The notes beneath the pieces are model-generated. The model had not been told where the DNA came from. It worked only from the letters and a program-made list of their open reading frames with translations, and did not search any database. A program made the translations under genes and the position numbers. A DNA stretch of 36,418 bases. Source: Candidatus Magasanikiibacteriota bacterium. GTDB lineage: Bacteria; Patescibacteriota; Patescibacteriia; Magasanikbacterales; GWA2-37-8. The stretch lies in the NCBI GenBank assembly GCA_026396515.1, contig JAPLWQ010000003.1, positions 357,569-393,986 of the forward strand. Direction: 5' to 3'. Positions 11,163-36,418 of this stretch are shown piece by piece (positions within the stretch are counted from its first letter, which is position 1; the number at the start of each line of letters is the position of its first letter).

Positions 11163-11173
11163 AAAAAAAATAG

Positions 11174-18763: not shown

Positions 18764-21043
18764 TTAACTGCCGGAAAACCACAGCCTCCCCTGCTCAAAC
18801 ATCAAGCGCTTCCATCTGAAATAGTTTAGATATTCACAGAGCGTGAGCGGAGCATCCACGTTCGTTCCAATAGCGATATTGCGGCAGTCAATATCAACCG
18901 GCGGCGAGTAGTCAATTTGGCGCGAAGATGACCCGGTCTCCTGATTTATCCACAAACCAAATTCATGCATACCAAGCATGTTCGGATATTTTTCGCGATC
19001 GTCAAAAATGGAATGGCCTTCAAATGAGTTCGGCCCGTTTATTCCAAGCACCTGCATTACGGTCGGCGCGAAATCCATAGCCGAGCTCATTGTGGAAACC
19101 TCTTTCGGCAGAATCGTTTCCGGGATATACATTTGAAACAATATTTCATCATAGAAAGTCATTTTGCCCGCCACGTCCGGAAAAAATCTTTTTTCATAGG
19201 CCGTGGGAAATACGGCATGATCGGCAATGGCTATTACTATGGTATCAGAGGCGAATTCACTAGCTTTAAACTTCTCCCAAAATATTCTAAAAGCATCATC
19301 AGTGGTATGGAACGTATTTAACAATAAATTTTTACCATCGCCATATGGCACGGCATCTTTAACAAGATCAAAGGGCGGATGGGTGTCCACAGTAGAAAGC
19401 ATAAGTAAAAACGGTTCTTCTTTTTTCGCTTCCTTGTTCTTCATTTCATCAAACAAAACCGGAAACATCTGATGATCGGAATATCCCCAAGACAAGGGCT
19501 CACCGGAAATCCTATGAGAGAGTTCATCCGTACCCCACGTTTCCTCTACACCCATACTGGCCAAAATTGAATCCTTGTTGGCAAAATCCTTATCAATAGC
19601 GGTGATGTATAAATTTGACAGATAACCGTTTTTTTTCAATGCTTCAGGCAAACAATATAAATAGACACTCTGCAAATGTTTATCTTGTTCAATTTCATTG
19701 TGTCCGGTCGGCGGCAATATGCTGCACAGTTCCGATATCAGGCCAGTGACGGTTGGAGTTGAGGGGTTGAAAACATTTCTGAACACTGTCGTATTCTTGT
19801 CTTCCGCCATAGCGTTTAACCCCGGTGTAACATTTTTCATATCCGGGTTGTACGGACCGGTAAGCCGGGCGGAAAATGATTCAAGAAAAACAACCACAAT
19901 ATTTGGCCGCTGGCCGGCAAACTTCCCGGGCAGCAGCTTCTTATCGCTTTGATACACAACGTCATGATTGTTTATATAGAAATCAGTTGTATCGTGAAAA
20001 ATACCAAACCGCTCCAATTTTTTCTGGACCACCGGGTTGAGCTCGGCTCGCGGGTCGGCGCCGCGCCAATTATCATAAAAAGATTTTATGATTAGCGCCT
20101 CCGGAGTGTTGCGGAGCGAGGCGATGGTAAAAAAAGCGATAAGCGATAACGCAATTAAAGCGATATCATAATAATACCATTGGCGTACGCCGGAAAAACG
20201 GTGCGTCTTTACGAACCTGATGACGATCAGCAGAAAAATCGAGCTGACGAGCATGTACAGGACGATCAAAAATATGGTGGTGGATAAAAAAACCATTTCA
20301 CCGCCGTTTCCCGCGTGCTCCATCACAACCGGGTTTAAATACAAACCGGTATGATATAAAACTCCCACATTGGCCGCACCGACAAGAATAGAAAACAAGA
20401 AAAAAGCAATCCAAAAATATAAAAATAGGAAACGCACTTTACTCTCAAAAAACATATAAAGCAAGCTGGCAAAGGCGAAACCGCAAAGCCAAAAAGCGGC
20501 AATGGCTACCGACCGAAACAATACAATATTGTAATATTTAATGTTTGAGTCAAGGATATAGTGAGAAAAAGCAAAATATTGCAGGACAGCGTTTATCAGA
20601 AAGATAAATGCGGAAAGAATAAAAAAAGCCCGGCCGGCTTTTCGCCAGCCCTCCGCCGGATGACGGGCCAAATACGCATCCAACCGTGAGTATAGAAGCA
20701 CTGATATGATAGAGAAATATATCAGGCTGATCAGTTCATTGCGACTGAAAAATACCAAAAAATACAAAGAGGCAAGCAAAAAAAGCTCGTCTAAAAAAAT
20801 AAAAAATTCATCGCGCCAAAACGGGTGGCGCTCAAAGCGATTCACTAAATATCTATAAACCCATCTGATGAGACGCAGGCCAACGAATACGGCGACCCAT
20901 ACGCCAATAGAAACGATTACAAATCGCGTGTGAGGACGGAGAGGAAAATGATACCACTGCCAACCGGCAGTAATAAAAAAAGCTGCAGCTAAGTTTTTAA
21001 CTGCGCTTGTCAGGCCGGGAAATTTATTGAGTAATGCTGCCAT
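18764..21043 (-). CDS. Polytopic membrane protein with an extracytoplasmic sulfatase-family domain (LtaS/phosphoglycerol-transferase-like)
   Basis: The N-terminal ~330 aa has many TM segments. It is followed by an alkaline-phosphatase/sulfatase core (NIVVVFLESFSA..., STVDTHPPF). The start overlaps the hpf stop by 1 nt (TAATG). Confidence 0.75.
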   Translation of the reverse strand: MAALLNKFPGLTSAVKNLAAAFFITAGWQWYHFPLRPHTRFVIVSIGVWVAVFVGLRLIRWVYRYLVNRFERHPFWRDEFFIFLDELFLLASLYFLVFFSRNELISLIYFSIISVLLYSRLDAYLARHPAEGWRKAGRAFFILSAFIFLINAVLQYFAFSHYILDSNIKYYNIVLFRSVAIAAFWLCGFAFASLLYMFFESKVRFLFLYFWIAFFLFSILVGAANVGVLYHTGLYLNPVVMEHAGNGGEMVFLSTTIFLIVLYMLVSSIFLLIVIRFVKTHRFSGVRQWYYYDIALIALSLIAFFTIASLRNTPEALIIKSFYDNWRGADPRAELNPVVQKKLERFGIFHDTTDFYINNHDVVYQSDKKLLPGKFAGQRPNIVVVFLESFSARLTGPYNPDMKNVTPGLNAMAEDKNTTVFRNVFNPSTPTVTGLISELCSILPPTGHNEIEQDKHLQSVYLYCLPEALKKNGYLSNLYITAIDKDFANKDSILASMGVEETWGTDELSHRISGEPLSWGYSDHQMFPVLFDEMKNKEAKKEEPFLLMLSTVDTHPPFDLVKDAVPYGDGKNLLLNTFHTTDDAFRIFWEKFKASEFASDTIVIAIADHAVFPTAYEKRFFPDVAGKMTFYDEILFQMYIPETILPKEVSTMSSAMDFAPTVMQVLGINGPNSFEGHSIFDDREKYPNMLGMHEFGLWINQETGSSSRQIDYSPPVDIDCRNIAIGTNVDAPLTLCEYLNYFRWKRLMFEQGRLWFSGS

Positions 21044-21396
21044 TATATTTTGTATTCCTTTTCAGAGCGGACCAGACGTTTATCTTTTTTTATTTTCTCC
21101 CGTTGTAATATTTTATGCTTTTTCAGCTCACCTTCCAGATAGTCGCGCACTTTGTCTATCGCCTTATACAAATTTTTTTCATTTTTTGAGGCAAAAAGAT
21201 CCACGCCCGGCACATCCAGCCGGCATTCACACATAAATATATCCCCTTTCAAATGATGATCGGTTTCTTTACCCACCTTTACATCGGCCTTCAAAATGCG
21301 ATCATAAAATTTTTCCAGCCCGCCGATCTTTTTTTCTATATAGCTTTTTATGGGCTCGGTAAGCTCTATTCCCCTGCCTGTAATCTGTATATTCAT
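21043..21396 (-). CDS. hpf: Ribosome hibernation-promoting factor / RaiA family (short form)
   Basis: The 117-aa protein starts MNIQITGRGIELTEPIKSYIEKKIGGLEKF...DVKV, the typical HPF/YfiA N-terminal domain. Confidence 0.85.
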   Translation of the reverse strand: MNIQITGRGIELTEPIKSYIEKKIGGLEKFYDRILKADVKVGKETDHHLKGDIFMCECRLDVPGVDLFASKNEKNLYKAIDKVRDYLEGELKKHKILQREKIKKDKRLVRSEKEYKI

Positions 21397-21423: not shown

Positions 21424-22371
21424 TTACTTAACTATTTCCACTTCCGGAACCAACTCTACTCCATATCTATTATATACTTTTTCTTTAACGGCTTCAACCA
21501 CGGCGATGATGTCGGCTTGTGTCGCGCCTCCGTAATTGACGATGAAATTCCCGTGTTCTTGAGAAACACCGGCTCCGCCAATTTGAAAACCCTTCAAACC
21601 TAATTCTTCAATCAGATAACCGGCGGGAATTGTCCCCCGCTCGCGATATTGCGCCGGCAGAAGGCCTGGCTCGCCCGGCCAATTCGCAAGTTTAATATTC
21701 TTAAAAAAACTGCCTGCCGAAGGAAGCGCGGGGTGACGGCCATGGCGGCCGGCTATATTATCACTGGTTAGCCTAAGGATTTCTTTTGCGTCTCCGGGCG
21801 AGAACTTAAATATTATACGTAATATTACTCCTCCATCTTTCTTAAAAATGCTGTTGCGGTAGCCAAAATCACATTCGTTTCTTTGTAACGATATTATTTC
21901 ACCGTCTTTCCAGATATAAACATCCTCTATACTCTGCGACGTGTCGCTACCCATGGCTCCGGCATTTCCGCGAACCGCGCCGCCGACTGTTCCCGGAATC
22001 CCGGCCGCCCACTCCATACCAGTAAGTGAATTTGCCGCCGCAGCGCTGACGAGTGATGAAAAACTTGCTCCCGAATCGCAAACAATTTTTCCACCTTGGC
22101 AATCCAATTTATTGGTCTCAACGGAAATTACAACCCCTTCAAAACCATTGTCCGACATAAGCACGTTTGATCCGCCGCCGAGAATAAAAAAAGGCACGCC
22201 TTCGCCGGATAAATAACTTAAAAGACCGACTAACTTATCATTGTCGTTCACAGAAACCAAATATTCAGCCGGTCCGCCGACTTGAATAGTGGTATGCTTT
22301 CGCATCGGCTCGTTTAGCCTGACGCGGCCGTATTTTTTCAGCTCTTTGTAAAGCTCATTCATACTTGCCAT
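21424..22371 (-). CDS. murB: UDP-N-acetylenolpyruvoylglucosamine reductase MurB
   Basis: FAD-binding PCMH domain (ILGGGSNVL, GIPGTVGGAVRGNAGA) and a MurB C-terminal domain (SAGSFFKN, GNFIVN). Confidence 0.85.
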   Translation of the reverse strand: MASMNELYKELKKYGRVRLNEPMRKHTTIQVGGPAEYLVSVNDNDKLVGLLSYLSGEGVPFFILGGGSNVLMSDNGFEGVVISVETNKLDCQGGKIVCDSGASFSSLVSAAAANSLTGMEWAAGIPGTVGGAVRGNAGAMGSDTSQSIEDVYIWKDGEIISLQRNECDFGYRNSIFKKDGGVILRIIFKFSPGDAKEILRLTSDNIAGRHGRHPALPSAGSFFKNIKLANWPGEPGLLPAQYRERGTIPAGYLIEELGLKGFQIGGAGVSQEHGNFIVNYGGATQADIIAVVEAVKEKVYNRYGVELVPEVEIVK

Positions 22372-22373
22372 TT

Positions 22374-22402
22374 TTGATATTTTGGGCTATGATTTATACA
22401 TT
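22374..22402 (+). promoter_or_regulatory. Candidate promoter TTGATA-N17-TACATT for the ATP-grasp::Nudix operon
   Basis: TTGATA at 22374-22379 and TACATT at 22397-22402. ATG 22416 is 13 nt downstream of the -10 box, so the mRNA is nearly leaderless. Confidence 0.5.
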
Positions 22403-22428
22403 ATATTGGAAAATTATGACGCTGGCAA
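22400..22428 (-). promoter_or_regulatory. sigma70 promoter TTGCCA-N17-TATAAT for the murB operon
   Basis: The minus strand reads TTGCCAgcgtcataattttccaaTATAAT. The -35 box is at 22428-22423 and the -10 box at 22405-22400. It lies inside the first codons of the divergent ATP-grasp gene. Confidence 0.6.
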
Positions 22429-24080
22429 ATAGCGCAAAAAACGCCCTGAAAAAGAAGCTTGGAACAAAGCGGCTTTTTTATGTCTGTCGCGATATTGAAC
22501 GCGCTGAAGCGTCGCTTCTACTCGGGCTAAATAACTTCTATATTATTTCCAATGACAGCTATTACGGCCGCCAACTGTCAAAAAAGAATCACCACATAAT
22601 ATTGATCAAAGAAAAAAGGATTTTGGACACGCGCGAACTTTTGACAAGCGCCGCGGCTAAAAAGATTATCAGGCGATTCGATAATATCATGGTCTTTAAA
22701 CCGACCGCTCAGATTGAAGAAACCTGCCGGGAACGCGGATGGAAACTGCTCAATCCACCCGCCGCTCTGGCCGGACAAGTGGAAGAAAAAATTTCGCAAG
22801 TTAAATGGCTGGGAAAGTTAAAAAAATATTTGCCGCTGGAAAAAATTGATATCTTAAAGAGTATCAAATGGAAAAGCCGCAAGTTTATTTTGCAGTTCAA
22901 TCGCGCTCATACCGGCAGCGGCACTATACTCATTGATTCAAGGGTAAAACTGGACAAATTGAAACAACAATTTCCCAGTCGCGAAGCCCGTGTTTCCCGC
23001 TTCGTTGACGGGCCCTGCTTCACGGTTAATTGCCTTGTTTGGGGTAAGCGAGTATTAGCCGGAAATATCAGTTATCAGATAACCGGACTTAAACCGTTTA
23101 CCGACAACCCATTTGCCACAATAGGCAACGATTGGACTCTGCCAAAAACTTTGCTTTCAAAAAAGCAAATTACTGAAATCAAAAAAATTGCTGACGAGGT
23201 GGGAAAAAAATTACGGGCCGATGATTGGCAAGGCCTGTTTGGTATAGACATTTCATTGGATAGCCGAACCGGACGAGTATATTTAATTGAAATTAATGCC
23301 AGACAACCGGCTTCTACAAGTTTTGAATCCATTCTGCAAAATGATGTGCACACAAAAAACGGAGCAACCATTATGGAGGCGCACTTGATGGCTCTGCTTA
23401 ACTGCCCGCCAAAAAAATTTCAACTGATAAAAATTTCTAACGGAGCGCAGCTGGTGCAGCGCGTGACTGCCGCAACACCGCATCTGACAGAGCCATATTT
23501 ATATAAACCGACAAAGTTCAAACATATTCGCTATGAGAACATTAAACCGGACAGTGATTTAATGAGGGTTCAGACGCGCTTCGGCATAATGGAAAGCCAT
23601 AACAATCTGAATGAACACGGAAATGAGCTGTCAATTTTTATCCGTTCCGGAAAAACAAAAAGGATTTTCAACGGACCTCGCGCCGGAATGATAATTATTA
23701 AGAATGGACGATTGCTTTGCATCGAAAGAGACCGTTTCGGCTACCACTACTTCACCCTACCGGGCGGCACTTTGGAAAATAGGGAGAAAGAGCAAGAAAC
23801 CGCTCGCCGCGAAATTCTGGAGGAAACCGGTTTAAAAATTGGCATTGATGTCACAAAAACACCTATAGTAGTAGAGGGGTCCCGTCATGAAACATATTTT
23901 TGGGCCGAAAAAGCAAAAGGCCGTGTACGATTAGGCGGCCCTGAAAGAGAGCGCAACACTAACGGTAACCACTATTCGCTAAAGTGGATAAAAATTTCAG
24001 ATATTAAAAAAATTAATCTTTTACCTTCGGAATTAAAAAAAGGTCTGATAAAAATATTTAGGAAATATGCTTTCGCCTAA
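22416..24080 (+). CDS. ATP-grasp ligase fused to a C-terminal Nudix hydrolase
   Basis: ATP-grasp core GLFGIDISLDSRTGRVYLIEINARQPAS. A perfect Nudix box G-x5-E-x7-REUXEEXGU (GTLENREKEQETARREILEETGL) lies at 23766-23834. I chose ATG 22416 because the ORF-track start at 22365 would overlap the murB start and the promoter. Confidence 0.8.
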   Translation: MTLANSAKNALKKKLGTKRLFYVCRDIERAEASLLLGLNNFYIISNDSYYGRQLSKKNHHIILIKEKRILDTRELLTSAAAKKIIRRFDNIMVFKPTAQIEETCRERGWKLLNPPAALAGQVEEKISQVKWLGKLKKYLPLEKIDILKSIKWKSRKFILQFNRAHTGSGTILIDSRVKLDKLKQQFPSREARVSRFVDGPCFTVNCLVWGKRVLAGNISYQITGLKPFTDNPFATIGNDWTLPKTLLSKKQITEIKKIADEVGKKLRADDWQGLFGIDISLDSRTGRVYLIEINARQPASTSFESILQNDVHTKNGATIMEAHLMALLNCPPKKFQLIKISNGAQLVQRVTAATPHLTEPYLYKPTKFKHIRYENIKPDSDLMRVQTRFGIMESHNNLNEHGNELSIFIRSGKTKRIFNGPRAGMIIIKNGRLLCIERDRFGYHYFTLPGGTLENREKEQETARREILEETGLKIGIDVTKTPIVVEGSRHETYFWAEKAKGRVRLGGPERERNTNGNHYSLKWIKISDIKKINLLPSELKKGLIKIFRKYAFA

Positions 24081-24882
24081 AGCTGAAAAATTAATTAACG
24101 ACTATTTTAACCTTCCTTTTGAAGGCCTGTCCGGAATACGCTGCCCGTATTTTAATAACACCAGGCGGCGCGCCCGCGGACAATTGCGGGGGTTGATAGG
24201 CAAGGGTACGCCTGAAGAAATAGTCGAGGAAGCAAAAATAATTTCTACACAATACCGGCATAATATTTTTGATAAGGACGGTTTTTGCTGTATTCACGCC
24301 GCTCACAGCGATGAAGAAAAAAATGATGACGTGAGAAAATTTTTAATTGACAACGACCTCGGCATTGATTGCTCGGGATTTATCAGCCAGGCGCTCATTG
24401 CTCATTATAAGGAAACAAAAAATATTAATATTGCTAAAAATTTTTATTTTTGGCCTTTAAAAAATTTTTGGCGACGACTGGTTGCACGGCTCCGTCCGGT
24501 TGAAAACATGTCGGTGAGCGTGATAGCAAAAGATGAAAATTCGTTAAAAATTGCCGACGGACGGGAAACGTATGACTGGTCAAAATTGCAGCCAGCCGAC
24601 CTTATATTTATGATGGAAACAGGACCGAACAAAAAGCGAAATCATATTTTAATTATTGAAGATAACGAAGGCTCAATAATTAAATATGCCCACTCCCGGG
24701 CCTGGTCGTCTGACGGTAAGTACGGGCACGGCGTGGCTCGCGGAGTTATACGAATAACCAAATTGGCCGGCAATATGCTGGACCAAACTTGGGAAGAGCA
24801 AGGAAAAACAAATGATGAAAATGAAACTTATCGCGAAGCCAGTGAGGCGAAAATATTTGAAGTCCGACGTATAAAAATTTAA
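24067..24882 (+). CDS. NlpC/P60-family cysteine peptidase/amidase without a signal peptide
   Basis: Catalytic Cys motif GIDCSGFISQAL. Downstream PADLIFM...NHILII...YAHS matches the His and polar residues of the papain-like NlpC/P60 triad. It overlaps the upstream gene by 14 nt. Confidence 0.7.
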   Translation: MLSPKAEKLINDYFNLPFEGLSGIRCPYFNNTRRRARGQLRGLIGKGTPEEIVEEAKIISTQYRHNIFDKDGFCCIHAAHSDEEKNDDVRKFLIDNDLGIDCSGFISQALIAHYKETKNINIAKNFYFWPLKNFWRRLVARLRPVENMSVSVIAKDENSLKIADGRETYDWSKLQPADLIFMMETGPNKKRNHILIIEDNEGSIIKYAHSRAWSSDGKYGHGVARGVIRITKLAGNMLDQTWEEQGKTNDENETYREASEAKIFEVRRIKI

Positions 24883-24891
24883 CATTCATCT

Positions 24892-26031
24892 ATGCAGATA
24901 ATGTCGTGCGAACCATTTTCACCCCAGCTTCTGGAACAGGCGCTGTTATATTTAATTTGCGCGACAATCGGCGCCTTTGTTTTAGCCCCTCTTTTAACAA
25001 AATTTTTATACAAATTCAATATTACGCGCCGCGGAGAATATGATTTTACTTTGCGCGGATCCGAACGGTCGCAAAAAATTGGCACGCCAATAATGGGCGG
25101 CATTTTGGTAATAATTACTGTTACAATAATCACATTATTATTTAATTGGGAACGAAGTTATACTTATGTGCCAATCGGCGTGATGGCAATATCGGCGCTG
25201 CTTGGAGCAGCAGACGATCTTCTGAATATCTTTGGCGCAAAACGGCGCGAACGCAGCTTAAAGAATACCTGGCTTTTGGTTAAAGTTCACAGAATTTGGT
25301 ATATGCGCGTGCTTCACGCCTTGAGTCTGCCTTGGGTGGCATTCCGGCAATTTACTTCGGCTCTCGGCTCGCACCCGGGCCGTGGCATTCAAGTACACGA
25401 AAAACTATTAATGCAATTCATTGCAGGCGCCGTGACGGCCTGGTGGATATACTTTAAACTCGGTGAAAACTGGCGTTCGCTCTGGCTGCCGTTCGATGGG
25501 GAAGTTTCTTTAAGCTGGTGGATTATCCCACTGGTTATTTTACTTGTAATGTTTACGGCAAATGCTGTAAATATCGCTGACGGCCTGGACGGCCTGGCCG
25601 GCGGCGCGCTGATTATGACTTTTTCCGGGCTAACCGCAATAAGCTGGATAGAAGGGCGCGTAGCTTTTACTCTTCTCAATGCTACGGCGGTTGGCGCGCT
25701 CATTGCTTACACTTATTTCAATATTAAACCGGCCCGCTTTCAAATGGGCGACGTGGGCACGCTGGGGCTGGGGGCGCTTTTCGCAATCAACGCCATTGCC
25801 GTGAATAAAACAATTCTCATTCCCCTGCTGGGTTTTATTTTTTATGTGGAAGCGATTTCCGTGATAATCCAAGTATTTTACCGCCGTCTGCTCGGCCGCC
25901 GCTTTTTCAAAATGGCTCCTCTGCACCATCACTTTGAATTCCACGGCTGGAGCGAAGAAAAAATCGTTATGCGCTTTTGGCTGATTCATCTGTTTTTCGT
26001 GGTTGTGGCAGTGTGGCTATCCCTGCATTAA
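24892..26031 (+). CDS. mraY: Phospho-N-acetylmuramoyl-pentapeptide transferase MraY
   Basis: Motifs NAVNIADGLDGLA, MGDVGTLGLGA and APLHHHFE, with about 10 TM segments. Confidence 0.9.
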   Translation: MQIMSCEPFSPQLLEQALLYLICATIGAFVLAPLLTKFLYKFNITRRGEYDFTLRGSERSQKIGTPIMGGILVIITVTIITLLFNWERSYTYVPIGVMAISALLGAADDLLNIFGAKRRERSLKNTWLLVKVHRIWYMRVLHALSLPWVAFRQFTSALGSHPGRGIQVHEKLLMQFIAGAVTAWWIYFKLGENWRSLWLPFDGEVSLSWWIIPLVILLVMFTANAVNIADGLDGLAGGALIMTFSGLTAISWIEGRVAFTLLNATAVGALIAYTYFNIKPARFQMGDVGTLGLGALFAINAIAVNKTILIPLLGFIFYVEAISVIIQVFYRRLLGRRFFKMAPLHHHFEFHGWSEEKIVMRFWLIHLFFVVVAVWLSLH

Positions 26032-26071
26032 GTATATAGATGGTTCGTTATGCAAAATAATTTCTTTAAAC

Positions 26072-26746
26072 ATGGACGGATACTTATCCTGGGATGACAA
26101 TACAATTACTGATTTCTCCGAAGCGAATGTGAGCGCAATGTATGAACGCGGTTTTGTTTTTACCCGACTTGGCAAAGGACAGATGACGCAAACAAGAAGC
26201 GTGCGGGTGGATTTGAGCAAATTTGAACTCAACAGTGAAAACCGCCGTATTTTACGCAAGGTGGATAATATTGAACTTAATATTGAAACACTCCCCCATC
26301 CAAATTATGATTGGCGCATACACAAGCTCGGTTTTGATTTCTATACCGCAAAATTCGGCCCAAAAACTTTTTCCGCCAATAAAATCAAAGAGCTTTTAAC
26401 AAGCAACGAAAGCAATTACAACAAATTATTCGTTTATCAATTTAATAACGCGCCGGTCGGTTATTGCATTTGTTTTGAGAATAACAATTGGCTTCATTAT
26501 GGTTATCCTTTTTATGACTTGAACTCTAAAATCGATAATCTTGGCATCGGTATGATGACAAAAGCGATCGCTTGGGCTAAAGAAAACAGTAAAAAATATG
26601 TCTGTCTGGGCAGCGCCCAAAACCCATCCGCAGTTTATAAACTGCAATTTGCCGGCGTGGAATGGTTCGACGGGCAAACCTGGCGTTCTGATGCGGAAGA
26701 ATTAAAAAAGATTCTATTAACCGGATCCCCGCTTGCGCGAGGATGA
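26072..26746 (+). CDS. ATE/Bpt-family (arginyl- or leucyl-tRNA--protein transferase-like) GNAT-fold protein
   Basis: The C-terminal half VGYCICFENNNWLHYGYPFYDLNSKIDNLGIGMMTKAIAWAKENSKKYVCLGSAQNPSAVYKLQFAGVEWFDGQTW follows the ATE_C pattern (..Y.FYDP...SLG...L..I..A......Y.YLGY......K..YK..F.P.E.....W). The N-terminal GFVFTRLG...RVDLSKFELNSENRRILRK matches ATE_N but lacks the Cys residues. I chose ATG 26072 because the ORF-track start at 26003 overlaps mraY. Confidence 0.65.
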   Translation: MDGYLSWDDNTITDFSEANVSAMYERGFVFTRLGKGQMTQTRSVRVDLSKFELNSENRRILRKVDNIELNIETLPHPNYDWRIHKLGFDFYTAKFGPKTFSANKIKELLTSNESNYNKLFVYQFNNAPVGYCICFENNNWLHYGYPFYDLNSKIDNLGIGMMTKAIAWAKENSKKYVCLGSAQNPSAVYKLQFAGVEWFDGQTWRSDAEELKKILLTGSPLARG

Positions 26747-28131
26747 CACGGAATATTATGAGACATATTCACTTCATCGGAATCTGCGGCGTCGGTATGA
26801 GCGCCCTCGCGATTCTTTGGAAAAAGATGGGTTGGAAAGTAACCGGTTCTGACGCCGGATTTTATCCGCCTATATCCACCCATTTGGATCAAAACCAAAT
26901 CGATTTTTACGCCGGCTGGCATCCTGAAAAAATTGGCACGCCGGATTTGGTTGTGGTCGGCAATGTCGCCGGGTCGGAAAATCCGGAATGGCTATTCGTA
27001 CAGGAGCATAATATTAAGCACATTTCATACCCGGAATTAATCGGACAAAATTTGGTAAGGAAAAATTCAATTGTCTGCGCCGGCACCTGGGGCAAGACTT
27101 CTACCACCGCTTTACTTTCATACATTTTAACCCGGGCGGACTACAAACCCGCCTATATGTTTGGCGGTCTCTCCCTTAGCCTGCCATATGCGGCTGACGA
27201 TTTGGGCGGCGATTGGAGTGTGCTTGAAGGCGATGAATACAAAACCGGCAAAGACAACCCCATGGCAAAATTCTTTTCATATAAACCGACTTATTTGCTT
27301 CTTACCGGTCTTGAGTGGGATCACTTCGATATGTATCCGACGGAAGAATCATATTATGGCGCCTTTAAAAAGCTGATGAAATTATTGCCGGAAAACGGAC
27401 TGGTGCTCGCTTGCACCAACAGCGAAAACATTGAACGCGTACTTCCTGAAACGAACGCAAAGGTAATCAGATACGGAACCGATAACGCAGACTACATATT
27501 TAGCGAAGTGACATGCGGAAAAGACGGAATTTCTTTTAAAATTTCCAGCGGCGGAGCGACAAATGAAATTAAATCGCCAATGCTTGGCGATTATATGGCT
27601 GAAAATATCTGCGGAGCTTTCGCCATGGCGAGCGAAATCGGGGTTGCCAAAGGTACAATTATTGACGCCATCGGAAGCTTTGGCGGAATTAAGCGCCGGT
27701 TGGAAAATCGCGGCAAGACAGCGGAAGGCGCAACAATATTTGACGACATCGCCCACTCACCAATTAAAGCGCGCTCAGTTCTGCAAACGCTAAGAAATAT
27801 TTACAGCGGAAAAATTATCGCAGTTTTCGAACCAAATACCGGCAATCGCCAGGTTTCATCCGCGCCGGGTTATGACAGCAGTTTTTTAAATGCGGACATT
27901 GTCGTAATTCCCCGTCTGACAAAAATAAAAATCGACGAAAAAACCAATGATACGGTTATGGACGGCCAAATGCTAGCAGACATCATTGCGCGAACGCATA
28001 AAACTGTGAAACTTATTAGTGATGACGCACAACTTGTGAAATATTTAAAAACCGCAGCCGGTCCTGAAGACGCAATCGTCTTTTTGGGCAGCCACGGTTT
28101 CAGGGGTATGATTGAGAGCCTGATTGATTAG
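26743..28131 (+). CDS. Mur ligase of the MurC/Mpl branch, Mpl-like (UDP-MurNAc:peptide ligase)
   Basis: HFIGICGVGMSALA, VTGSDAGFYPPISTHL (E. coli Mpl has YPPMST), P-loop GTWGKTSTTA. The start overlaps the upstream stop as ATGA. Confidence 0.75.
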   Translation: MTRNIMRHIHFIGICGVGMSALAILWKKMGWKVTGSDAGFYPPISTHLDQNQIDFYAGWHPEKIGTPDLVVVGNVAGSENPEWLFVQEHNIKHISYPELIGQNLVRKNSIVCAGTWGKTSTTALLSYILTRADYKPAYMFGGLSLSLPYAADDLGGDWSVLEGDEYKTGKDNPMAKFFSYKPTYLLLTGLEWDHFDMYPTEESYYGAFKKLMKLLPENGLVLACTNSENIERVLPETNAKVIRYGTDNADYIFSEVTCGKDGISFKISSGGATNEIKSPMLGDYMAENICGAFAMASEIGVAKGTIIDAIGSFGGIKRRLENRGKTAEGATIFDDIAHSPIKARSVLQTLRNIYSGKIIAVFEPNTGNRQVSSAPGYDSSFLNADIVVIPRLTKIKIDEKTNDTVMDGQMLADIIARTHKTVKLISDDAQLVKYLKTAAGPEDAIVFLGSHGFRGMIESLID

Positions 28132-28293
28132 CTATTTTCCTTCATCAACCACTTCGGCAACGTAGTTTTCTCCGACTTCTTTAACGTTAAGAGTAATTCC
28201 GCAGTGGTTGCATTCAATGATATGGCCATCAGCCAGATCAGGATAGTTAGTCAAATCGATTTCATTCTTACACTCAGGGCAAATGAGTTTCAT
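28132..28293 (-). CDS. 53-aa zinc-ribbon protein of the LysW/ArgW carrier-protein type, without the terminal Glu
   Basis: Manual translation: MKLICPECKNEIDLTNYPDLADGHIIECNHCGITLNVKEVGENYVAEVVDEGK. The CPxC...CxxCG ribbon and acidic tail match the LysW architecture. It is below the ORF-track size cut-off. It has its own TTGACA-N17-TATTAT promoter. Its stop codon abuts the stop codon of the convergent Mur ligase gene. Confidence 0.6.
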   Translation of the reverse strand: MKLICPECKNEIDLTNYPDLADGHIIECNHCGITLNVKEVGENYVAEVVDEGK

Positions 28294-28324: not shown

Positions 28325-28353
28325 ATAATACTACATTTATAATAATTTGTCAA
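28325..28353 (-). promoter_or_regulatory. sigma70 promoter TTGACA-N17-TATTAT for the LysW-like gene
   Basis: The minus strand reads TTGACAaattattataaatgtagTATTAT. The -35 box is at 28353-28348 and the -10 box at 28330-28325. It lies 31 nt upstream of ATG 28293. Confidence 0.6.
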
Positions 28354-28358
28354 CCGTT

Positions 28359-29237
28359 ATGGTTACGCCGCAAATAAAAGCCGAAGAACTTGCACAAGCC
28401 ATCGGTTTGGAAGGAGATCTGTATTTAAAGCGCGAAGATCTTCACCCCTACGGCTCGCATAAAGGCCGTTCAATTCCAAAAATGCTTTCTAAATATGCAG
28501 CCGAAGGATGGAAGAGTTTTGTGATTTCATCTTCCGGCAACGCCGCTCTCGCGGCGGCGATTGTCGTAAAAAAATTGAATCTGGAATTGTCCAATAAAAT
28601 TTTACTGGCCATTTATGTGGGGAAGGATATTAATAATGAAAAATTTGACAGAATTAGTATAGCAATAAAAGACGAAAAAAATATTTCTATTAAACAGGTG
28701 ACGCACCCGAAACACGAGGCATTTTTAGAGGATAAACTCGGCAAAGCAAAAAATTTGCGCCAGTCCACAGATGATATGGCGTTAAAAGGATATGAAGAGT
28801 TGGCCGGTGAACTCGGGGAAATAAAAAAAATATGCGCAATATTTATTCCCACTTCAAGCGGTACAACCGCGCAGGGACTCTATTTGGGCTTTGAGAATCT
28901 TGGCTTGCACCCGCAGATTCATATTGCTCAAACCGATGAATGTCATCCGATAGCGGACGCTTCAGTGCCTTCATCGGGGTCTGCTTCACTGGCCGACGCG
29001 ATTGTCGATAAAATCGGGCATCGAAAAAATGCCATAAACGATCTCATGAAAAAAAGTAATGGCCGGGGATGGATTATATCTAACGAAGAGATACTGGACG
29101 CAATCACATTGGTGAAAAGAACGGAAAATTTGGATATTTCTCCGAACAGCGCTTTGTCTGTGGCCGGATTAAAAAAAGCCGTACAAAACGGCTATTCATT
29201 CGACGGCCCTGTTGTCTGTCTGATTACCGGACTTTAA
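28359..29237 (+). CDS. PLP-dependent fold-type II enzyme (threonine synthase/cysteine synthase superfamily)
   Basis: KREDLHPYGSHKGR contains the PLP-lysine motif (K.E..NP.GS.K.R). SSGNAA and PTSSGTT loops are present. I chose ATG 28359 because the TTG at 28347 overlaps the divergent -35 box. Confidence 0.65.
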   Translation: MVTPQIKAEELAQAIGLEGDLYLKREDLHPYGSHKGRSIPKMLSKYAAEGWKSFVISSSGNAALAAAIVVKKLNLELSNKILLAIYVGKDINNEKFDRISIAIKDEKNISIKQVTHPKHEAFLEDKLGKAKNLRQSTDDMALKGYEELAGELGEIKKICAIFIPTSSGTTAQGLYLGFENLGLHPQIHIAQTDECHPIADASVPSSGSASLADAIVDKIGHRKNAINDLMKKSNGRGWIISNEEILDAITLVKRTENLDISPNSALSVAGLKKAVQNGYSFDGPVVCLITGL

Positions 29238-29244
29238 TACCTCA

Positions 29245-31293
29245 TCATAAATTTATCACGGCAATATCCATTTTGCCGTCAAAATTGACATCAACAGTGC
29301 CAACCATCGCCCCGGCGGATCCTAAAAGCCCGCTGGGTATAAATTCAGACAACTTCTTTCCGGTACCGTCAAATACCCTTATCGGCATTTTCTTTACTGA
29401 CATGGCACTAACGATAATCTCATCTCTCCCGTCCCCGGTTATATCGCCGGTTGCCACGTAAATTCCACCTTTGAAGGTTTTATCATATGGGTAAAAACGC
29501 TTTTTTAATATTGAAATGCGATTGTCATAGATTAGTACTTCCGCCGGCTTGCCTTTGCCCACACCAACAACTACACTGCCTGGTTTGCCAGGACCATCCA
29601 GTTGAGCGGCAGCCACAGAAAAACCGCCGACATATTTTTTCGGGTCAAACGGCGTATAACCGCCCTGCATAACCGCTCCATGATAATTGTACATCATTAT
29701 ATTATTGCCAAAACTTGGAGAAATTACGATTTGGTTCTCTGCTTGTTTTTCAAATAATTTATTAACTGAAATTCTGATATCCCCCTTAAAATTTCCGCCG
29801 AACGGATAATCACTAAACCAATGCTCTCCCTGACTGTTAAATATTTCAAGCTTTGATCCGCTTGCCACTATTGTTTCCTCATCTCCGGCGTTGTCGATAT
29901 CGGAAAAAAGGATTCGCGCTCCACCCGGGTACCGGGCATCATAGGCAAAAAATCCGTTACGCACTCTTTGCCCAAGATAATCTACAAATCTGACAAACGC
30001 GCCATTCACAAAAACCAAATCTTTAACTGTCTGATAGGTTTTTAGCATGAGCAGGCCGTCTTTTGCCGCCACTTTAATTTTACTGACGATCCCGCCATTA
30101 TTTACTTTAGGATCTTGTGTGCCGATCAGTTTTTCAAACTCTCCGCCCAGGTCAACCTCTTTTTCTTCTGCCAATGAATTAACAACAGCCAAGCCATTGG
30201 TAAATTCTCGCCGCCAAACATCTTTGTAATATCCACTACCGCCGTTCATGGGTGTGGCTACGCCCATGGGGGCTCCAAGGTTCACATTATATTCATCATA
30301 CCACCATTTTTCAGAGTGGCTTTGTGAACCGGCGTCATAGCTAAAATATCCGTTTTCCATAAGTGAACTGGCCAAACCAAAACGCACTTTAGTATAATCG
30401 GTCTGCGCTTTTGTCGGGTCGGCTGAAGTGTTGCCAAGTATGGCGACTTTCGGCTCGCGGCTGGTATTGGCCGACAGGCCATAAAGCCTCATTTTTTCCT
30501 CCCAGGAAATATAGCCGTTGGTGGAAAAATTTTCAAAATATATTCCGTTGATATCGCCGTAATATCCTTTGTCGCCATTACCCACAATAATTAACGGCTG
30601 TTTGTATTTTTCACGCGTCAATTTAAAAAGTTTGCTCATACCGGATTGCCAAGCGCTGTCCAAGTCGGCCGCTCTATCATTTTGGCCGTCGCGATTAGAA
30701 TCAATCGCTCCGCCGTTCAGCCAAGAAATATTTGCCCAAGTATTATCATAAAATACGCCGTCCCATAAACCGGACGAAAGAAGCTCATTTACCACAAAAT
30801 CTGATAAATAGTCATTCCATCGTCGGCCATTTGTCTGATAATCGGTGACATTAAGCATCCAGGCGGTATCCCAAAAAACGACGTGGGCCCCCCCGCCGTC
30901 GCGCAACCACATGTCATCAGAAATGCCGCTGAGCAGGCGTTTAAACAAACCGTTTGGACTGCGATCCCATTCAGCGTGTTTATTTATCGGAAATTCCTGT
31001 GAAGTAATATATACGAGTATTTTTATTTCCGGATTTATTTGCCTAATTTGGCGAATTTGCTCCGCACTATTTTGCTGAGCGAGCATGTGTAGAATTAATA
31101 CGTCCCATCTTGCCAAGAGCGGCACGTCGCTTTGACGAATGGGAGAATAGAGATAAAGGCTTGCCAGCCTCGGATATTCATTAGCGCTTTGCGCTTTTAC
31201 CGGTCCGTTTTGCGGTAAAAGACTTAAAAAAACAACCACCATTAGTATTAGCGACAAAAATTTTTTAGATTGTCGCGAAAAAGCGGCTGCCAT
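29245..31293 (-). CDS. Secreted protein: an N-terminal glycoside-hydrolase-like TIM-barrel region plus C-terminal FG-GAP/VCBS-like repeats
   Basis: Signal peptide FLSLILMVVVFLSLLPQNGPVKAQS. C-terminal Ca-binding-type repeats are SDIDNAGDEETIV, GDITGDGRDEIIV and VDVNFDGKMDIAV. The GHL assignment of the N-terminal region is tentative. Confidence 0.6.
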   Translation of the reverse strand: MAAAFSRQSKKFLSLILMVVVFLSLLPQNGPVKAQSANEYPRLASLYLYSPIRQSDVPLLARWDVLILHMLAQQNSAEQIRQIRQINPEIKILVYITSQEFPINKHAEWDRSPNGLFKRLLSGISDDMWLRDGGGAHVVFWDTAWMLNVTDYQTNGRRWNDYLSDFVVNELLSSGLWDGVFYDNTWANISWLNGGAIDSNRDGQNDRAADLDSAWQSGMSKLFKLTREKYKQPLIIVGNGDKGYYGDINGIYFENFSTNGYISWEEKMRLYGLSANTSREPKVAILGNTSADPTKAQTDYTKVRFGLASSLMENGYFSYDAGSQSHSEKWWYDEYNVNLGAPMGVATPMNGGSGYYKDVWRREFTNGLAVVNSLAEEKEVDLGGEFEKLIGTQDPKVNNGGIVSKIKVAAKDGLLMLKTYQTVKDLVFVNGAFVRFVDYLGQRVRNGFFAYDARYPGGARILFSDIDNAGDEETIVASGSKLEIFNSQGEHWFSDYPFGGNFKGDIRISVNKLFEKQAENQIVISPSFGNNIMMYNYHGAVMQGGYTPFDPKKYVGGFSVAAAQLDGPGKPGSVVVGVGKGKPAEVLIYDNRISILKKRFYPYDKTFKGGIYVATGDITGDGRDEIIVSAMSVKKMPIRVFDGTGKKLSEFIPSGLLGSAGAMVGTVDVNFDGKMDIAVINL

Positions 31294-34165: not shown

Positions 34166-36418
34166 CTACGGAACGAACCCGATGAACAGGCCCTGGGTGA
34201 GGCAAATCCTCTCGACCGGGGTCAGCTCAAAGAAGTTCGACTGGTTGCTGAGACAGCACTCGGGAATGGGATCCTGTTCCGCACACGGCTCGCAGTGGTC
34301 AACGACCCAGTTGCATGAACCGCAATGCGGCATCGGGCTACCATCCACGTACTGCCAGGGCACGGGGCCCCAGTAGTTGCAGCCACCGGCGACATCGAAA
34401 TCGTCGCAGGTGCTGTTGATCGTGAGCGGGTTGCCGTCGACATCCAAATCCCAGCAGAAGAGGTACTGGCCCGTACCCGGAACCGGAATCGGTTCGCAGG
34501 TATGCGTATCCTTTCCACACGCTTCATCGGCCAAGCAGTCCTCGGCTTGGGAGCACTCCACGCAGATGCTGTCGAGGCAAACGGGCAGGGCCGGATTCGT
34601 GCAGTCGGTATCGATCACGCACTCGCCGGCGTCCGTGTCGGTATCGCCGTCCGAGTCAGAATCGCTGTCGGTATCGGTATCCGTATCACCGTCAGTGTCC
34701 GTGTCGGTATCGGTGTCGGTATCACCGTCAGTGTCCGCATCCGTGTCAGCGTCAGTGTCCGTGTCGGTATCGGTGTCCGTATCCGCGTCAGAGTCGGTAT
34801 CGGTATCCGTGTCCGTATCGGTGTCGCTGTCGGTGTCGGTATCACCATCGCTGTCCGTGTCCGTGTCCGTGTCGGTATCTGTATCGGTGTCGGTGTCGGT
34901 ATCCGTGTCCGTATCGCCGTCGGTGTCCGCGTCGGTGTCGGTGTCACCACCAGCATCCGGCACGCCACCATCGGGGACGGAACCGCAGTACCCTTCGGTA
35001 TCGCAGACGAGATCAGTGTCGCACTCCTCGAGCGGAGGCTCGGCACACGGCTGGCCGTCTTCGCCAACGCACGCACCCGCCGGAATATTCTGACACTCGT
35101 ACTCGCACACCACGCAAGTGGCGGACGAAGAGGTTGCCAGACAGACCGAGGAAGTATCGCACGACGCGATCGTGATCCAGCTGTTGTGGTAGATTGATCC
35201 GTCGCAGGCAGCGCCGGTACCGTCACAGTACTGCCGCGAGATGCGGCGCTGTCCATCGGCTCCGCAGAGCGCACCGTTGCAGCGGTAGTCGTACCACTGG
35301 CTGCAAAGGGTGAACTCGGCCTTGTAGGAGTCGGCCGGACAGACCGGCAGATCGCCGGTGCAGTATTCGTCGTTGTCGCACGGTCCGGCCGCGTCGCGGC
35401 AAACCGCCGTGTCCGGCAGATAGGAATCGGCCGGGCAGTCGGGGGCGGTGCCGGTGCAGAGCTCTGCCGGATCGCAATCGCCGGCGGAGATGCGGCACTC
35501 GAGCGTGGCCGGTTCGAACGTATCCGCGGGGCAGAACGAATTCACGCCGTCGCAGTACTCCGGCAAATCGCAGTCGCCCATATCGGTGCGGCAAACCTCG
35601 AACGGCAGCTTGACTGCGTCCTCGCACAAACCGAGCCCGTCGCAGTAGCTGTCCTCAGCACAGTCGTCCGCGGCCAAGCCGCAGGGCGTTGTGTCGGGTT
35701 CGAAATTGATCTCGCAGGTCCCAGCGCCGTCGCAGGTATCCGCGTGATCGCAGGTGGATTCGGAGGAATCACCGCACGGGGCACCGAGCAACTCGAAGTT
35801 GCCACCCAGATCACAGCACTCGCTGCCGGGGAAGCAATCCCCAGTATCGGTGTCTGTATCGGTGTCTGTATCGGTATCCGTGTCGGTATCCGTGTCGGTA
35901 TCCGTGTCGGTATCCGTGTCGGTATCCGTGTCCGAATCAGTATCCGTATCCGTATCGGTATCGGTGTCCGTGTCGGAATCCGTATCCGTGTCTGACCCAG
36001 TGTCAGTGTCGGTGTCCGTGTCGGTATCGGTATCACCATCGGTGTCCGTATCGGTATCGGTATCACCATCGGTGTCCGTATCGGTATCGGTGTCACCACC
36101 GGCATCAGGGCCACCGTCGCCAGCGTCCGGACCAGCATCCATGCCAGTATCCGTATCGCCGTCAGTGTCACTGTCGGTGTCCGTGTCCGTATCGGTGTCG
36201 GTATCACCATCGGTGTCCGTATCTGTGTCAGCGTCCGTGTCGGTATCGGTATCCGTGTCTGACCCAGTGTCAGTGTCGGTATCCGTGTCCGTATCGGTGT
36301 CGCTGTCGGTGTCGGTATCACCATCGGTGTCCGTATCCGTGTCAGCGTCCGTGTCGGTATCGGTATCCGTGTCTGACCCAGTGTCAGTGTCGGTATCCGT
36401 GTCCGTATCGGTGTCGCT
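34166..36418 (-). CDS. Large acidic (Thr-Asp)n repeat protein with five disintegrin-like Cys modules and further Cys-rich domains. The 5' end lies beyond the window.
   Basis: The frame stays open upstream of M at 36142 through to the window edge (only D, T, S and G codons). It includes CRTDMGDCDLPEYCDGVNSFCPADTF, CRISAGDCDPAELCTGTAPDCPADSY and CRDAAGPCDNDEYCTGDLPVCPADSY, which follow the ADAM/disintegrin pattern CR...G.CD..E.C.G....CP.D. There are two long DTDTD tracts. GC content is high and all other frames are repeat shadows. Confidence 0.8.
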   Translation of the reverse strand, partial: SDTDTDTDTDTDTGSDTDTDTDTDADTDTDTDGDTDTDSDTDTDTDTDTDTGSDTDTDTDTDADTDTDTDGDTDTDTDTDTDSDTDGDTDTGMDAGPDAGDGGPDAGGDTDTDTDTDGDTDTDTDTDGDTDTDTDTDTDTGSDTDTDSDTDTDTDTDTDTDSDTDTDTDTDTDTDTDTDTDTDTDTDTDTDTGDCFPGSECCDLGGNFELLGAPCGDSSESTCDHADTCDGAGTCEINFEPDTTPCGLAADDCAEDSYCDGLGLCEDAVKLPFEVCRTDMGDCDLPEYCDGVNSFCPADTFEPATLECRISAGDCDPAELCTGTAPDCPADSYLPDTAVCRDAAGPCDNDEYCTGDLPVCPADSYKAEFTLCSQWYDYRCNGALCGADGQRRISRQYCDGTGAACDGSIYHNSWITIASCDTSSVCLATSSSATCVVCEYECQNIPAGACVGEDGQPCAEPPLEECDTDLVCDTEGYCGSVPDGGVPDAGGDTDTDADTDGDTDTDTDTDTDTDTDTDTDTDSDGDTDTDSDTDTDTDTDTDSDADTDTDTDTDTDADTDADTDGDTDTDTDTDTDGDTDTDTDSDSDSDGDTDTDAGECVIDTDCTNPALPVCLDSICVECSQAEDCLADEACGKDTHTCEPIPVPGTGQYLFCWDLDVDGNPLTINSTCDDFDVAGGCNYWGPVPWQYVDGSPMPHCGSCNWVVDHCEPCAEQDPIPECCLSNQSNFFELTPVERICLTQGLFIGFVP
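34628..34946 (-). repeat. Hexanucleotide (GAYACN)n coding microsatellite-like tract encoding (Asp-Thr)n, internal tract
   Basis: The plus strand reads ...gtgtcggtatcggtgtcggtatcaccgtcagtgtcc... with strict 6-nt periodicity. Confidence 0.85.
35843..36418 (-). repeat. Hexanucleotide (GAYACN)n tract with a near-perfect 114-bp tandem duplication at 36200-36418
   Basis: 6-nt periodicity is present throughout. Positions 36200-36304 and 36314-36418 are identical apart from one mismatch (T at 36224 versus C at 36338) over 105 nt. Confidence 0.85.

Follow-up and report, generated by a model that had tools for sequence, protein, structure and literature searches.

In wall-bearing bacteria the cytoplasmic pathway of MurC, MurD, MurE and MurF is regarded as nearly universal, and it has become a paradigm for drug targets. 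The closest described counterparts of the genes considered here come from several other settings and include ATE/Bpt-type aminoacyl-tRNA transferases, which acylate the alpha-amine of N-terminal Asp or Glu, carrier proteins of the LysW type, which serve amino-acid and natural-product biosynthesis (the tail of true LysW ends in EDWGE), and cytoplasmic NlpC/P60 enzymes such as YkfC, which acts in peptide recycling in Bacillus. This report deals with a set of genes gathered around mraY in a stretch of 36,418 nucleotides, hereafter the window, from Candidatus Magasanikiibacteriota bacterium (assembly GCA_026396515.1, contig JAPLWQ010000003.1, positions 357,569 to 393,986 of the forward strand). 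Comparison with related genomes gives solid grounds for considering this set, or module, a conserved functional unit of cell-wall precursor synthesis that belongs to the main line of the pathway rather than to an accessory branch.

Mpl is the relevant reference among the Mur ligases. Das et al. (2011; PMC3060825) listed as Mpl-specific features GI(C/G)GTFM, SGP, Tyr182, (S/T)AFFDKRSK, RR, FAHH, EPRSNT and SNG, and the Psychrobacter enzyme (PaMpl) turns over the dipeptide L-Ala-D-Glu weakly (PMC3060825). For Chlamydia, another report (PMC9928106) describes a cytoplasmic NlpC/P60 enzyme that acts in peptide recycling.

The core of the locus consists of five co-directional open reading frames (ORFs) on the forward strand, g1, g2, mraY, g4 and g5, whose coordinates match the public gene calls on identical Logan contigs. 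g1 (22416-24080, 554 amino acids) encodes an ATP-grasp ligase with a C-terminal Nudix hydrolase domain (approximately 23649-24080), g2 (24067-24882, 271 amino acids) a putative cytoplasmic Cys/His enzyme of the NlpC/P60 superfamily, mraY (24892-26031, 379 amino acids) the phospho-MurNAc-pentapeptide transferase, g4 (26072-26746, 224 amino acids) a predicted aminoacyl-tRNA-dependent transferase of ATE/FemX fold, and g5 (26743-28131, 462 amino acids) a putative Mpl-family ligase acting on UDP-N-acetylmuramic acid (UDP-MurNAc) in the position of murC. As read from the sequence, g1 and g2 overlap by 14 nt, with AGGAAA preceding the ATG of g2, gaps of 9 and 40 nt separate g2 from mraY and mraY from g4, and g4 and g5 overlap by 4 nt (ATGA). 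A first-pass annotation made from the letters alone had reported these five genes as coupled by overlaps or short gaps; the ORFs, the public gene calls and the junctions all bear it out. mraY itself is ordinary (Pfam Glycos_transf_4; TIGR00445, 190.7 bits against a cutoff of 192.05; at least seven membrane segments). Two genes beyond g5 belong to the set as well, one for a small zinc-ribbon protein resembling LysW (28132-28293, reverse strand, 53 amino acids, tail AEVVDEGK) and one for a threonine-synthase-like enzyme of fold type II dependent on pyridoxal phosphate (PLP; 28347-29237, forward strand, with the gene callers' start at 28359). On the other side, murB (UDP-N-acetylmuramate dehydrogenase, 21424-22371, reverse strand; NCBIfam NF010480, 279.9 bits against a cutoff of 259) is divergent from g1. 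As module shorthand, A, N, T and L stand for g1, g2, g4 and g5, W for the LysW-like protein, P for the PLP enzyme and X for Nudix; loci compared are labeled L0xx or L1xx, and representatives of related ligases P0xxx.

A scan with one genome per species found g4 in 331 species-level genomes. Synteny was counted in the best 80 of these 331 loci, 51 of them fully covered. In all 80, each from a different species, g4 has the same genes around it, and the arrangement is therefore not a product of chance. The run mraY-g4-g5 is invariant among the best 80 loci; of the 51 with full coverage all have it, 48 have W and P, 40 have A and 39 have N. In layout A, that of the window, murB is divergent from g1-g2-mraY (the divergent murB-g1 arrangement occurs in 36 of the 51), and in layout B the run is ftsI-murF-mraY-g4-g5 with g1-g2 detached, adjoining murB in L020. 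While the order shuffles, three pairs persist, namely transferase with ligase, ATP-grasp enzyme with peptidase, and carrier with PLP enzyme, the last always divergently arranged. Fusions occur within these pairs: g4::g5 in L073 (680 amino acids) and L057 (685 amino acids), and g1::g2 in L081 and L085. The Nudix domain is mobile, being fused to g1 in about 11 loci, present as its own ORF after g1 in three, and found as an ORF of about 185 amino acids directly after g5 in more than 20; the A::Nudix fusion occurs in many genomes, and a nucleoside triphosphate pyrophosphatase, Nudix or MazG, usually accompanies the module. That the unit consists of three enzyme pairs (T-L, A-N, W-P) and a pyrophosphatase, grouped with mraY, murB and murF, is as solid a conclusion as its conservation. 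The first-pass annotation had identified the four partners of mraY correctly and had named conserved gene order as a test, which these loci bear out; its list of partners was incomplete, lacking the LysW-like carrier, the PLP enzyme and the mobility of Nudix. A search of the literature library found no description of this gene set.

Two distant loci are of particular weight. In L096, from an NCBI metagenome-assembled genome (MAG) with 39% ligase identity, the set is found in a new order, FtsX-ligase-MazG-<W-P-ATP-grasp-g2-like-MraY-...-SerRS-...-FtsQ, with MazG, a non-homologous pyrophosphatase, in the place of Nudix. In L104, the most telling locus, the gene order is mraZ-mraW-...-ftsI-murE-T-L-murB-murA-murF-mraY-N-<W-P-A-ftsW-murG, that is, the whole set lies inside a near-complete division and cell wall (dcw) cluster, with T-L beside murB and murA, and N-W-P-A between mraY and ftsW, at the canonical position of murD. 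L145 has the T-L-murB-murA block too, and L106-L108 have it in the form L-T-...-murB. Among related ligases there are fusions to MurB (P0268; P0295, which is L146), to treble-clef zinc fingers (P0367) and to a GNAT domain (P0353). L094, with 40% ligase identity, has the ligase next to a g4-like and a LysW-like gene, and the adjacency of W and ligase holds at this identity even where contigs are short.

These loci bear on whether all genes of the set share one task. The accessory genes (g1, g2, W, P and Nudix) might instead form a separate carrier-protein pathway, for an amino-acid-derived metabolite or for protein modification, that stands near mraY by lineage-specific inheritance. Such a pathway would agree with the use of LysW-type carriers elsewhere, with the relatedness of most sampled genomes, whose synteny is in part inherited, and with the detachment of g1-g2 from mraY in layout B. 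It is nevertheless highly improbable: the association survives reshuffling in three divergent lineages (the Magasanikbacteria type, L096 and L104), the set invariably adjoins mraY or the ligase, with a place between mraY and ftsW in L104, W stays next to the ligase at 40% identity, and related ligases are fused to zinc-finger domains.

Other features were observed among the loci compared. A pair resembling a diversity-generating retroelement (bAvd and a reverse transcriptase, L090:17705-18795) stands between the ligase side and the g1-g2 side in L090, where mraY is away from its usual place, and large pentapeptide-repeat proteins are encoded between module genes in L049 (9683-11704) and L081 (5295-8354). 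Many cluster-bearing species-representative MAGs (L013, L019, L025 and others) are titled 'uncultured Gammaproteobacteria', and also Udaeobacter or Saccharibacteria; given the Patescibacteria cluster that they carry, these record titles are almost certainly mislabeled.

The ligase g5 contains all three Mur ligase domains of Pfam (Mur_ligase, Mur_ligase_M and Mur_ligase_C), and its catalytic residues (P-loop GKTS, Glu162, Asp193-His194, Asn288, Arg318 and Asp335/His338) are invariant with both Mpl and MurC of Escherichia coli, with which it shares 30 and 27% identity, respectively. Its best match in the PDB is PaMpl (3hn7, 151.8 bits, against 138 for the best MurC). Among the 150 nearest cluster representatives, drawn from 1.8 billion clustered proteins, 148 resemble Mpl of E. 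coli more closely, by score, than its MurC, and nearly all carry the Mpl-type EGDEY...KF loop (EGDEYDxAFFDK). In a neighbor-joining tree, distance-based and including a single MurC, g5 falls in a divergent subclade of 45 members next to canonical Mpl, and E. coli MurC lies outside all 130 members of the clade that holds g5 and E. coli Mpl. In the alignment g5 retains the seven-residue Mpl-only loop after EGDEY with its Tyr, as well as YPPxST, RRLExRG, DDxAHxP and EP, and has lost Phe12, SGP, the AFFDKRSK sequence, RSNT and SNG of Mpl; the L-Ala contacts of MurC are also missing (His376 and Arg377 of HiMurC are replaced by Asn and Thr), Arg380 alone being kept. Because the PDB match, the alignment, the nearest relatives and the tree agree, g5 is assigned to the Mpl family by descent, with a substrate site that appears remodeled. 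The first-pass annotation had likewise preferred Mpl over MurC, a placement that the representatives, the loop and the tree uphold. A related Mpl-like ligase was seen in a different context, FemAB-MurA-x-MurE-DUF1611-ligase (L095:2908-10085), which suggests that in several lineages with small genomes the first ligation step falls to members of the divergent Mpl-like subclade.

The transferase g4 is poorly recognized by sequence models. Both ATE_C (21.4 bits, cutoff 25) and the NCBIfam arginyltransferase (41 bits, cutoff 170) are below threshold, the Pfam scan gave no ATE_N or FemAB match, and a profile search against PDB sequences gave no match. Its AlphaFold model (predicted local distance difference test, pLDDT, 93.3) is most similar in Foldseek to human ATE1 (TMq 0.73), followed by yeast ATE1, FemX (E = 1.7e-7), the streptothricin aminoacyl-tRNA peptide synthases Sba18/Sbb17, aminoacyl-phosphatidylglycerol synthases and L/F-transferase. 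Aminoacyl-tRNA-dependent transferases make up nearly all of the 50 best matches, the exceptions being 3frm and the acetyltransferase VipF (7wx7), at rank 34 or lower. The modeled structure thus places g4 in the GNAT-fold aminoacyl-tRNA transferase superfamily (ATE, FemABX, L/F-transferase, aminoacyl-phosphatidylglycerol synthases), in accord with the ATE/Bpt-type fold that the first-pass annotation had recognized. There are 1342 homologs at 57-80% identity, and those with a source name come from Patescibacteria or Magasanikbacteria.

One g4 ortholog (L054:10007-11275) has an extra C-terminal extension of about 200 amino acids resembling a membrane domain. Genes for aminoacyl-tRNA synthetases occur near the module in two loci, seryl-tRNA synthetase (SerRS) two genes after mraY (L096:8015-9337) and a class II synthetase upstream of mraZ (L104:2498-3778); they might hint at the donor tRNA or be a coincidence. 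The 253-amino-acid gene after SerRS in L096 was considered as a g4-like gene and rejected, and the SerRS adjacency is thus no clear clue to the donor.

The fusion of ATP-grasp and Nudix domains in g1, named in the first-pass annotation, is supported by Pfam (ATP-grasp_3, 23.9 bits, barely above the cutoff; NUDIX PF00293, 40.6 bits, cutoff 21.1), by an intact Nudix box G-x5-E-x7-REUxEExGU in the translation (GTLENRE-KEQETAR-REILEETGL) and by the AlphaFold model (pLDDT 92), whose best Foldseek matches are PurK, biotin carboxylase and the L-amino-acid ligase 3vot. Its homologs number 1303, fused to Nudix as well as unfused. An identity as a LysX/RimK-type enzyme or Ddl was considered and finds no support in these structural matches, and the NCBIfam matches are weak and mixed.

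As to g2, Pfam matches are all below threshold (NLPC_P60, 21.9 bits, cutoff 23; Amidase_6, 20.9-22.8 bits, cutoff 23.2), and a profile search of solved structures gave nothing significant, with weak matches to 3h41 and Spr at two motifs. In an alignment of 23 orthologs Cys102 (in GIDCSG) and His193 are invariant and His209 is present in at least 90%; these residues correspond, judging from their conserved order, to the NlpC/P60 triad. A conserved N-terminal domain of about 95 amino acids precedes the catalytic part. No signal peptide, membrane segment or hydrophobic N-terminus was found in g2 (maximum KD19 0.87), which together with the conserved residues agrees with the signal-less NlpC/P60 enzyme of the first-pass annotation.

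The carrier candidate W matches Zn_ribbon_LysW (PF21344) with 34.6 bits in the window and 48.2 in L104 (cutoff 27). It has 53-54 amino acids across loci and is encoded on the strand opposite to g5, between g5 and the PLP gene. CxxC...CxxC and the tail E[IV][VI][DE]EGK with its C-terminal Lys are conserved in 74 of 74 loci, and the tails in distant lineages are VIVEEEK (L094), EIAEIEK (L096) and VVIEEKG (L104). P matches PALP (121.8 bits), has threonine synthase 2zsj as its best PDB match (67.6 bits) and carries the PLP lysine in GSHKGR. Pfam families characteristic of LysZ, LysY or LysJ (kinase, reductase and aminotransferase) were absent from the annotated neighbors in the inspected loci, these enzymes not having been searched for directly.

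The canonical Mur genes were surveyed in neighborhoods of +/-10 kb around the cluster. In the window, murF (9870-11162, reverse strand; NCBIfam murF, 276 bits) directly follows ftsI, which encodes a PBP2/SpoVD-type transpeptidase (11174-12913, reverse strand), and no murE stands between ftsI and murF either here or in the eight fully covered layout B loci. No MurE, MurC, Ddl, MurG or FtsW-like ORF was found within +/-10 kb in any Magasanikbacteria-type locus, where the only intact Mur ligases are MurF and the g5 type, and no murC, murD or ddl was found within the 21 kb of the L104 locus. The same scan recovered ordinary ftsI-(murE)-murF-mraY-murD-ftsW-murG-murC-murB-ddl clusters in control loci, so the method detects the canonical genes when they are present. 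The run rlmN-ftsI-murF (9870-13949, reverse strand) is without mraZ, mraW, ftsL and murE. The dcw cluster of this genome is split into at least two pieces, ftsI-murF being the other remnant.

In several Magasanikbacteria-type loci a MurD-like gene of 438-459 amino acids converges on the PLP gene (L046:15756-17120, L062:13236-14552, L090:10001-11317, L092:10001-11380, L101:12102-13430); it also adjoins the PLP gene in L076 and L103. The protein has at least 533 homologs. Mur_ligase_M (PF08245) was undetected in 120 of the 120 listed, and TIGR01087 scores are 122-146 bits against a cutoff of 212. Aligned with the MurD of E. coli and one other canonical MurD, the protein retains its N-terminal domain, P-loop and C-terminal domain and has lost GGNIG, the DH motif and the carbamylated Lys198, with two deletions. 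Its sequence makes a standard D-Glu-adding activity improbable, and the protein may be a pseudo-enzyme or a repurposed ligase. It had been considered as proof of a stepwise route from MurC to MurD, and this was dropped on account of the central domain, which lacks DH, GGNIG and the carbamylated Lys.

The results suggest that in this Magasanikbacteria-type bacterium of the Candidate Phyla Radiation (CPR) several textbook precursor steps have been taken over by non-homologous enzymes, and it is likely that the module is a main-line biosynthetic one in which L acts as the first ligase. Beyond fold and family, the functional assignments that follow are inferred. Within this reading a specific mechanism is put forward tentatively, with somewhat less than even confidence. 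The stem peptide would not be extended by MurC and MurD one residue at a time on UDP-MurNAc. Rather, a short peptide starting with a (D-)Glu-type residue would be prepared off-line, and T would install the N-terminal residue (position 1, e.g., L-Ala) from aminoacyl-tRNA, by the same chemistry that ATE/Bpt enzymes perform on N-terminal Asp or Glu. The di- or tripeptide so formed would be joined to UDP-MurNAc in one piece by L, in the kind of reaction native to Mpl. MurF would then add the terminal dipeptide, before MraY transfers the precursor to the lipid carrier. A, W, P and N could constitute an attach-modify-release sub-pathway on a carrier protein, by analogy with LysX/LysW/LysK, supplying a non-proteinogenic building block; because of their genomic position this would probably be, most simply, D-Glu or the diamino-acid part. 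The pyrophosphatase would probably clear a nucleotide-linked by-product. An en-bloc route is favored because L descends from a peptide-ligating enzyme, because the ties of T are to L and UDP-MurNAc synthesis and not to late steps, because acylation of N-terminal Asp or Glu, as done by ATE/Bpt, corresponds to the bond between stem residues 1 and 2, because MurD is absent or degenerate where expected, and because PaMpl already uses L-Ala-D-Glu weakly.

The same survey can be read in a more conventional manner, as a stepwise Mur pathway with decorations. Here g5 would be this lineage's MurC, of Mpl ancestry and adding one amino acid, MurD, MurE and Ddl would be encoded elsewhere, g4 would be a FemX analog that puts a bridge amino acid on residue 3 of the UDP-MurNAc-peptide, g1 an Asl- or Ddl-type ATP-grasp ligase that makes or attaches D-amino-acid units, P a source of a D- or unusual amino acid, and g2 a housekeeping or proofreading hydrolase. 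This is a real but doubtful possibility. CPR cells are monoderm, and monoderm walls often contain branched stem peptides; g5 sits at the place of murC near murB and its relatives in other clades are fused to MurB; FemX is among the top structural matches of g4; MurE occurs within the L104 cluster; and the related L095 ligase accompanies FemAB, MurA and MurE. ATP-grasp ligases for D-Asp cross-bridges are also known (Aslfm, cited in PMC2922099). Against this, the strict adjacency and fusion of T with L, together with the T-L-murB-murA block, place the transferase with the first steps and not with a finished pentapeptide, the MurD-like protein is degenerate, and murE is missing between ftsI and murF, as murD is between mraY and ftsW. 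Further, g5 has Asn and Thr for the MurC residues His376 and Arg377 together with the Mpl-only loop, and a stepwise pathway leaves the LysW-like carrier with no role.

Salvage of muropeptides, the proposal of the first-pass annotation, would begin with the import of wall peptides from a host or from the cell itself and their trimming by the NlpC/P60 enzyme. After repair or extension by g1 and g4, the Mpl-like ligase would put them back onto UDP-MurNAc, and MurF would complete the product for MraY. Such a supply would be fitting for CPR bacteria, which live as auxotrophic epibionts, and cytoplasmic NlpC/P60 enzymes do act in peptide recycling, as YkfC exemplifies. The Chlamydia enzyme is a second example (PMC9928106). 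The ligase is of the Mpl family, and with MurF, the only other intact Mur ligase in Magasanikbacteria-type loci, it makes up the pair of the E. coli recycling shunt. To this extent the logic of the proposal stands; its import and salvage part finds no support. The inspected gene calls and family scans showed no transporter or permease, no AmpD-, NagZ- or LdcA-type gene and no gene for processing anhydro-MurNAc, although most flanking ORFs are unannotated and no search aimed at such genes was made. The ATP-grasp ligase, tRNA-dependent transferase, carrier and PLP enzyme are synthetic equipment that salvage does not need, and the residues by which Mpl contacts the tripeptide are not conserved in g5. 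Against an accessory salvage module there are also L104, where the set is embedded in a biosynthetic dcw cluster with MurA, MurB and MurE, at the places of murC and murD, and the tie of T to the ligase and to murB/murA. Salvage is therefore considered quite unlikely.

Several observations weigh against a main-line module with L as the first ligase or against the en-bloc mechanism proposed for it. NCBIfam ranks murC (TIGR01082, 246.1 bits, cutoff 335.1) slightly over mpl (TIGR01081, 234.7 bits, cutoff 388.7) for g5, both being below cutoff, and the contact motifs of g5 match neither Mpl nor MurC fully, so that the size of the substrate is unreadable from the sequence. The roles given to A, W, P and N rest on analogy, with A not of the LysX/RimK class and W ending in Lys or Lys-Gly and not in Glu. 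MurE is present in L104 and L095, intact murC, murD, murE and ddl could lie beyond +/-10 kb, no equivalent of Ddl was recognized unless A is one, and the MurD-like protein, given the domains it keeps, could still be active in some way. To our knowledge, the sole biochemical precedent for a role of such a transferase in making the cell wall is FemX, an enzyme that branches the peptide at position 3 and does not build position 1.

A bolder version, which is unlikely, can be formulated as a hybrid assembly of the stem peptide that depends on both tRNA and a carrier protein. A would tether a glutamyl unit to the conserved lysine of W, P would tailor it, residue 1 would come from aminoacyl-tRNA, L would join the product to UDP-MurNAc, and N would release it or pass it on, leaving MurC, MurD and, in Magasanikbacteria, MurE dispensable. 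If true, this would be a protein-templated route to the peptidoglycan precursor.

Across a large CPR lineage, the picture differs from the textbook pathway: the murC slot is filled by an Mpl-type ligase welded to a predicted tRNA-dependent transferase, and the murD slot by a set of carrier protein, PLP enzyme, ATP-grasp enzyme and peptidase. If the favored mechanism is right, it would represent a new way of making the stem peptide, in which LysW-like carriers and ATE-fold transferases take on a new role. It would also reveal how bacteria that are ultra-small and auxotrophic come by their D-Glu or diamino-acid building blocks, and would caution against scoring the peptidoglycan pathway of CPR genomes as incomplete from missing murC, murD or murE. 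The conservative reading makes g5 a MurC that descends from Mpl, g4 a new family of bridge-adding transferases outside the Fem group and g1 a new ATP-grasp ligase; it would still add three uncharacterized, widespread enzyme families to cell-wall biochemistry.

In the window, the best promoter-like hexamer pairs of the region lie in the gap between murB and g1 and point both ways. A consensus scan placed one site (TTGCCA-17-TATGAT, 22365-22393, forward strand) upstream of the ATG of g1 and a mirror site (22428-22400, reverse strand) upstream of murB; these are pointers only, as the promoter and terminator scans gave site totals not above shuffle expectation. An LtaS-like sulfatase and hpf beside murB (18764-21396, reverse strand), and a GHL15/FG-GAP protein after the PLP gene (29245-31293, reverse strand), are kept neighbors in most relatives. 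The only RNA gene found in the window is tRNA-Glu(CTC) (6723-6795, reverse strand). The window also encodes a 332-amino-acid protein with a lipoprotein-type N-terminus (ILASTGC) and no family match (8640-9638, forward strand), in a stretch of GC 0.52-0.58, and a Cys-rich protein of 658 amino acids with very long (Asp-Thr)n runs and disintegrin-like repeats (34166-36142, reverse strand), in a stretch of GC 0.58-0.63 against about 0.44 in the rest of the window.

Set beside the known systems, several parts of the module have recognizable relatives and depart from them. FemX is likewise encoded amid peptidoglycan-precursor genes, whereas g4 is coupled to the first ligase and murB/murA instead of to late steps and is fused to the ligase in two species; compared with FemX, ATE1, Bpt and L,F-transferases it is a single compact unit of only about 215 amino acids. 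Mpl has the same three-domain Mur ligase architecture as g5 and shares the Mpl-only loop with its Tyr, YPPxST, RRLExRG, DDxAHxP and EP. The ligase g5 differs in having Gly for Phe in GICGVGM, SYP for SGP, EPNTGNR for EPRSNT and GSHGF for SNGGF, in not retaining (S/T)AFFDKRSK, and in its dcw location by murB in the murC position, paired with a putative tRNA-dependent transferase and with no companion MurC seen. MurC shares with g5 its genomic position and its presumed type of reaction on UDP-MurNAc, and TIGR01082 is the top NCBIfam model by a small margin, but E. coli MurC is only 27% identical and branches outside the g5-Mpl clade, and two of the three named L-Ala contacts of HiMurC are lost in g5.

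In glutathionylspermidine synthetase/amidase an ATP-grasp amide ligase is likewise fused or coupled to a papain-like hydrolase of the NlpC/P60 superfamily (CHAP), with a domain order that is reversed in fusions of the g1-g2 type. YkfC and the Chlamydia enzyme are, like g2, cytoplasmic NlpC/P60 proteins in a context of cell-wall peptides (for the latter, PMC9928106), whereas g2 has an extra N-terminal domain of about 95 amino acids and a similarity to characterized NlpC/P60 enzymes that is below the family thresholds. The LysW/LysX/LysK system of Thermus and Sulfolobus also combines a small zinc-ribbon protein with an acidic tail, encoded beside an ATP-grasp ligase, a modifying enzyme and an amidohydrolase. 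In the module described here the carrier terminates in Lys (EGK; EEKG in L104) in place of the glutamate of EDWGE, the ATP-grasp enzyme is of the biotin-carboxylase/L-amino-acid-ligase class and not of the RimK/LysX class, the hydrolase is NlpC/P60-like and not an M20 peptidase, and the modifier is a threonine-synthase-like PLP enzyme.

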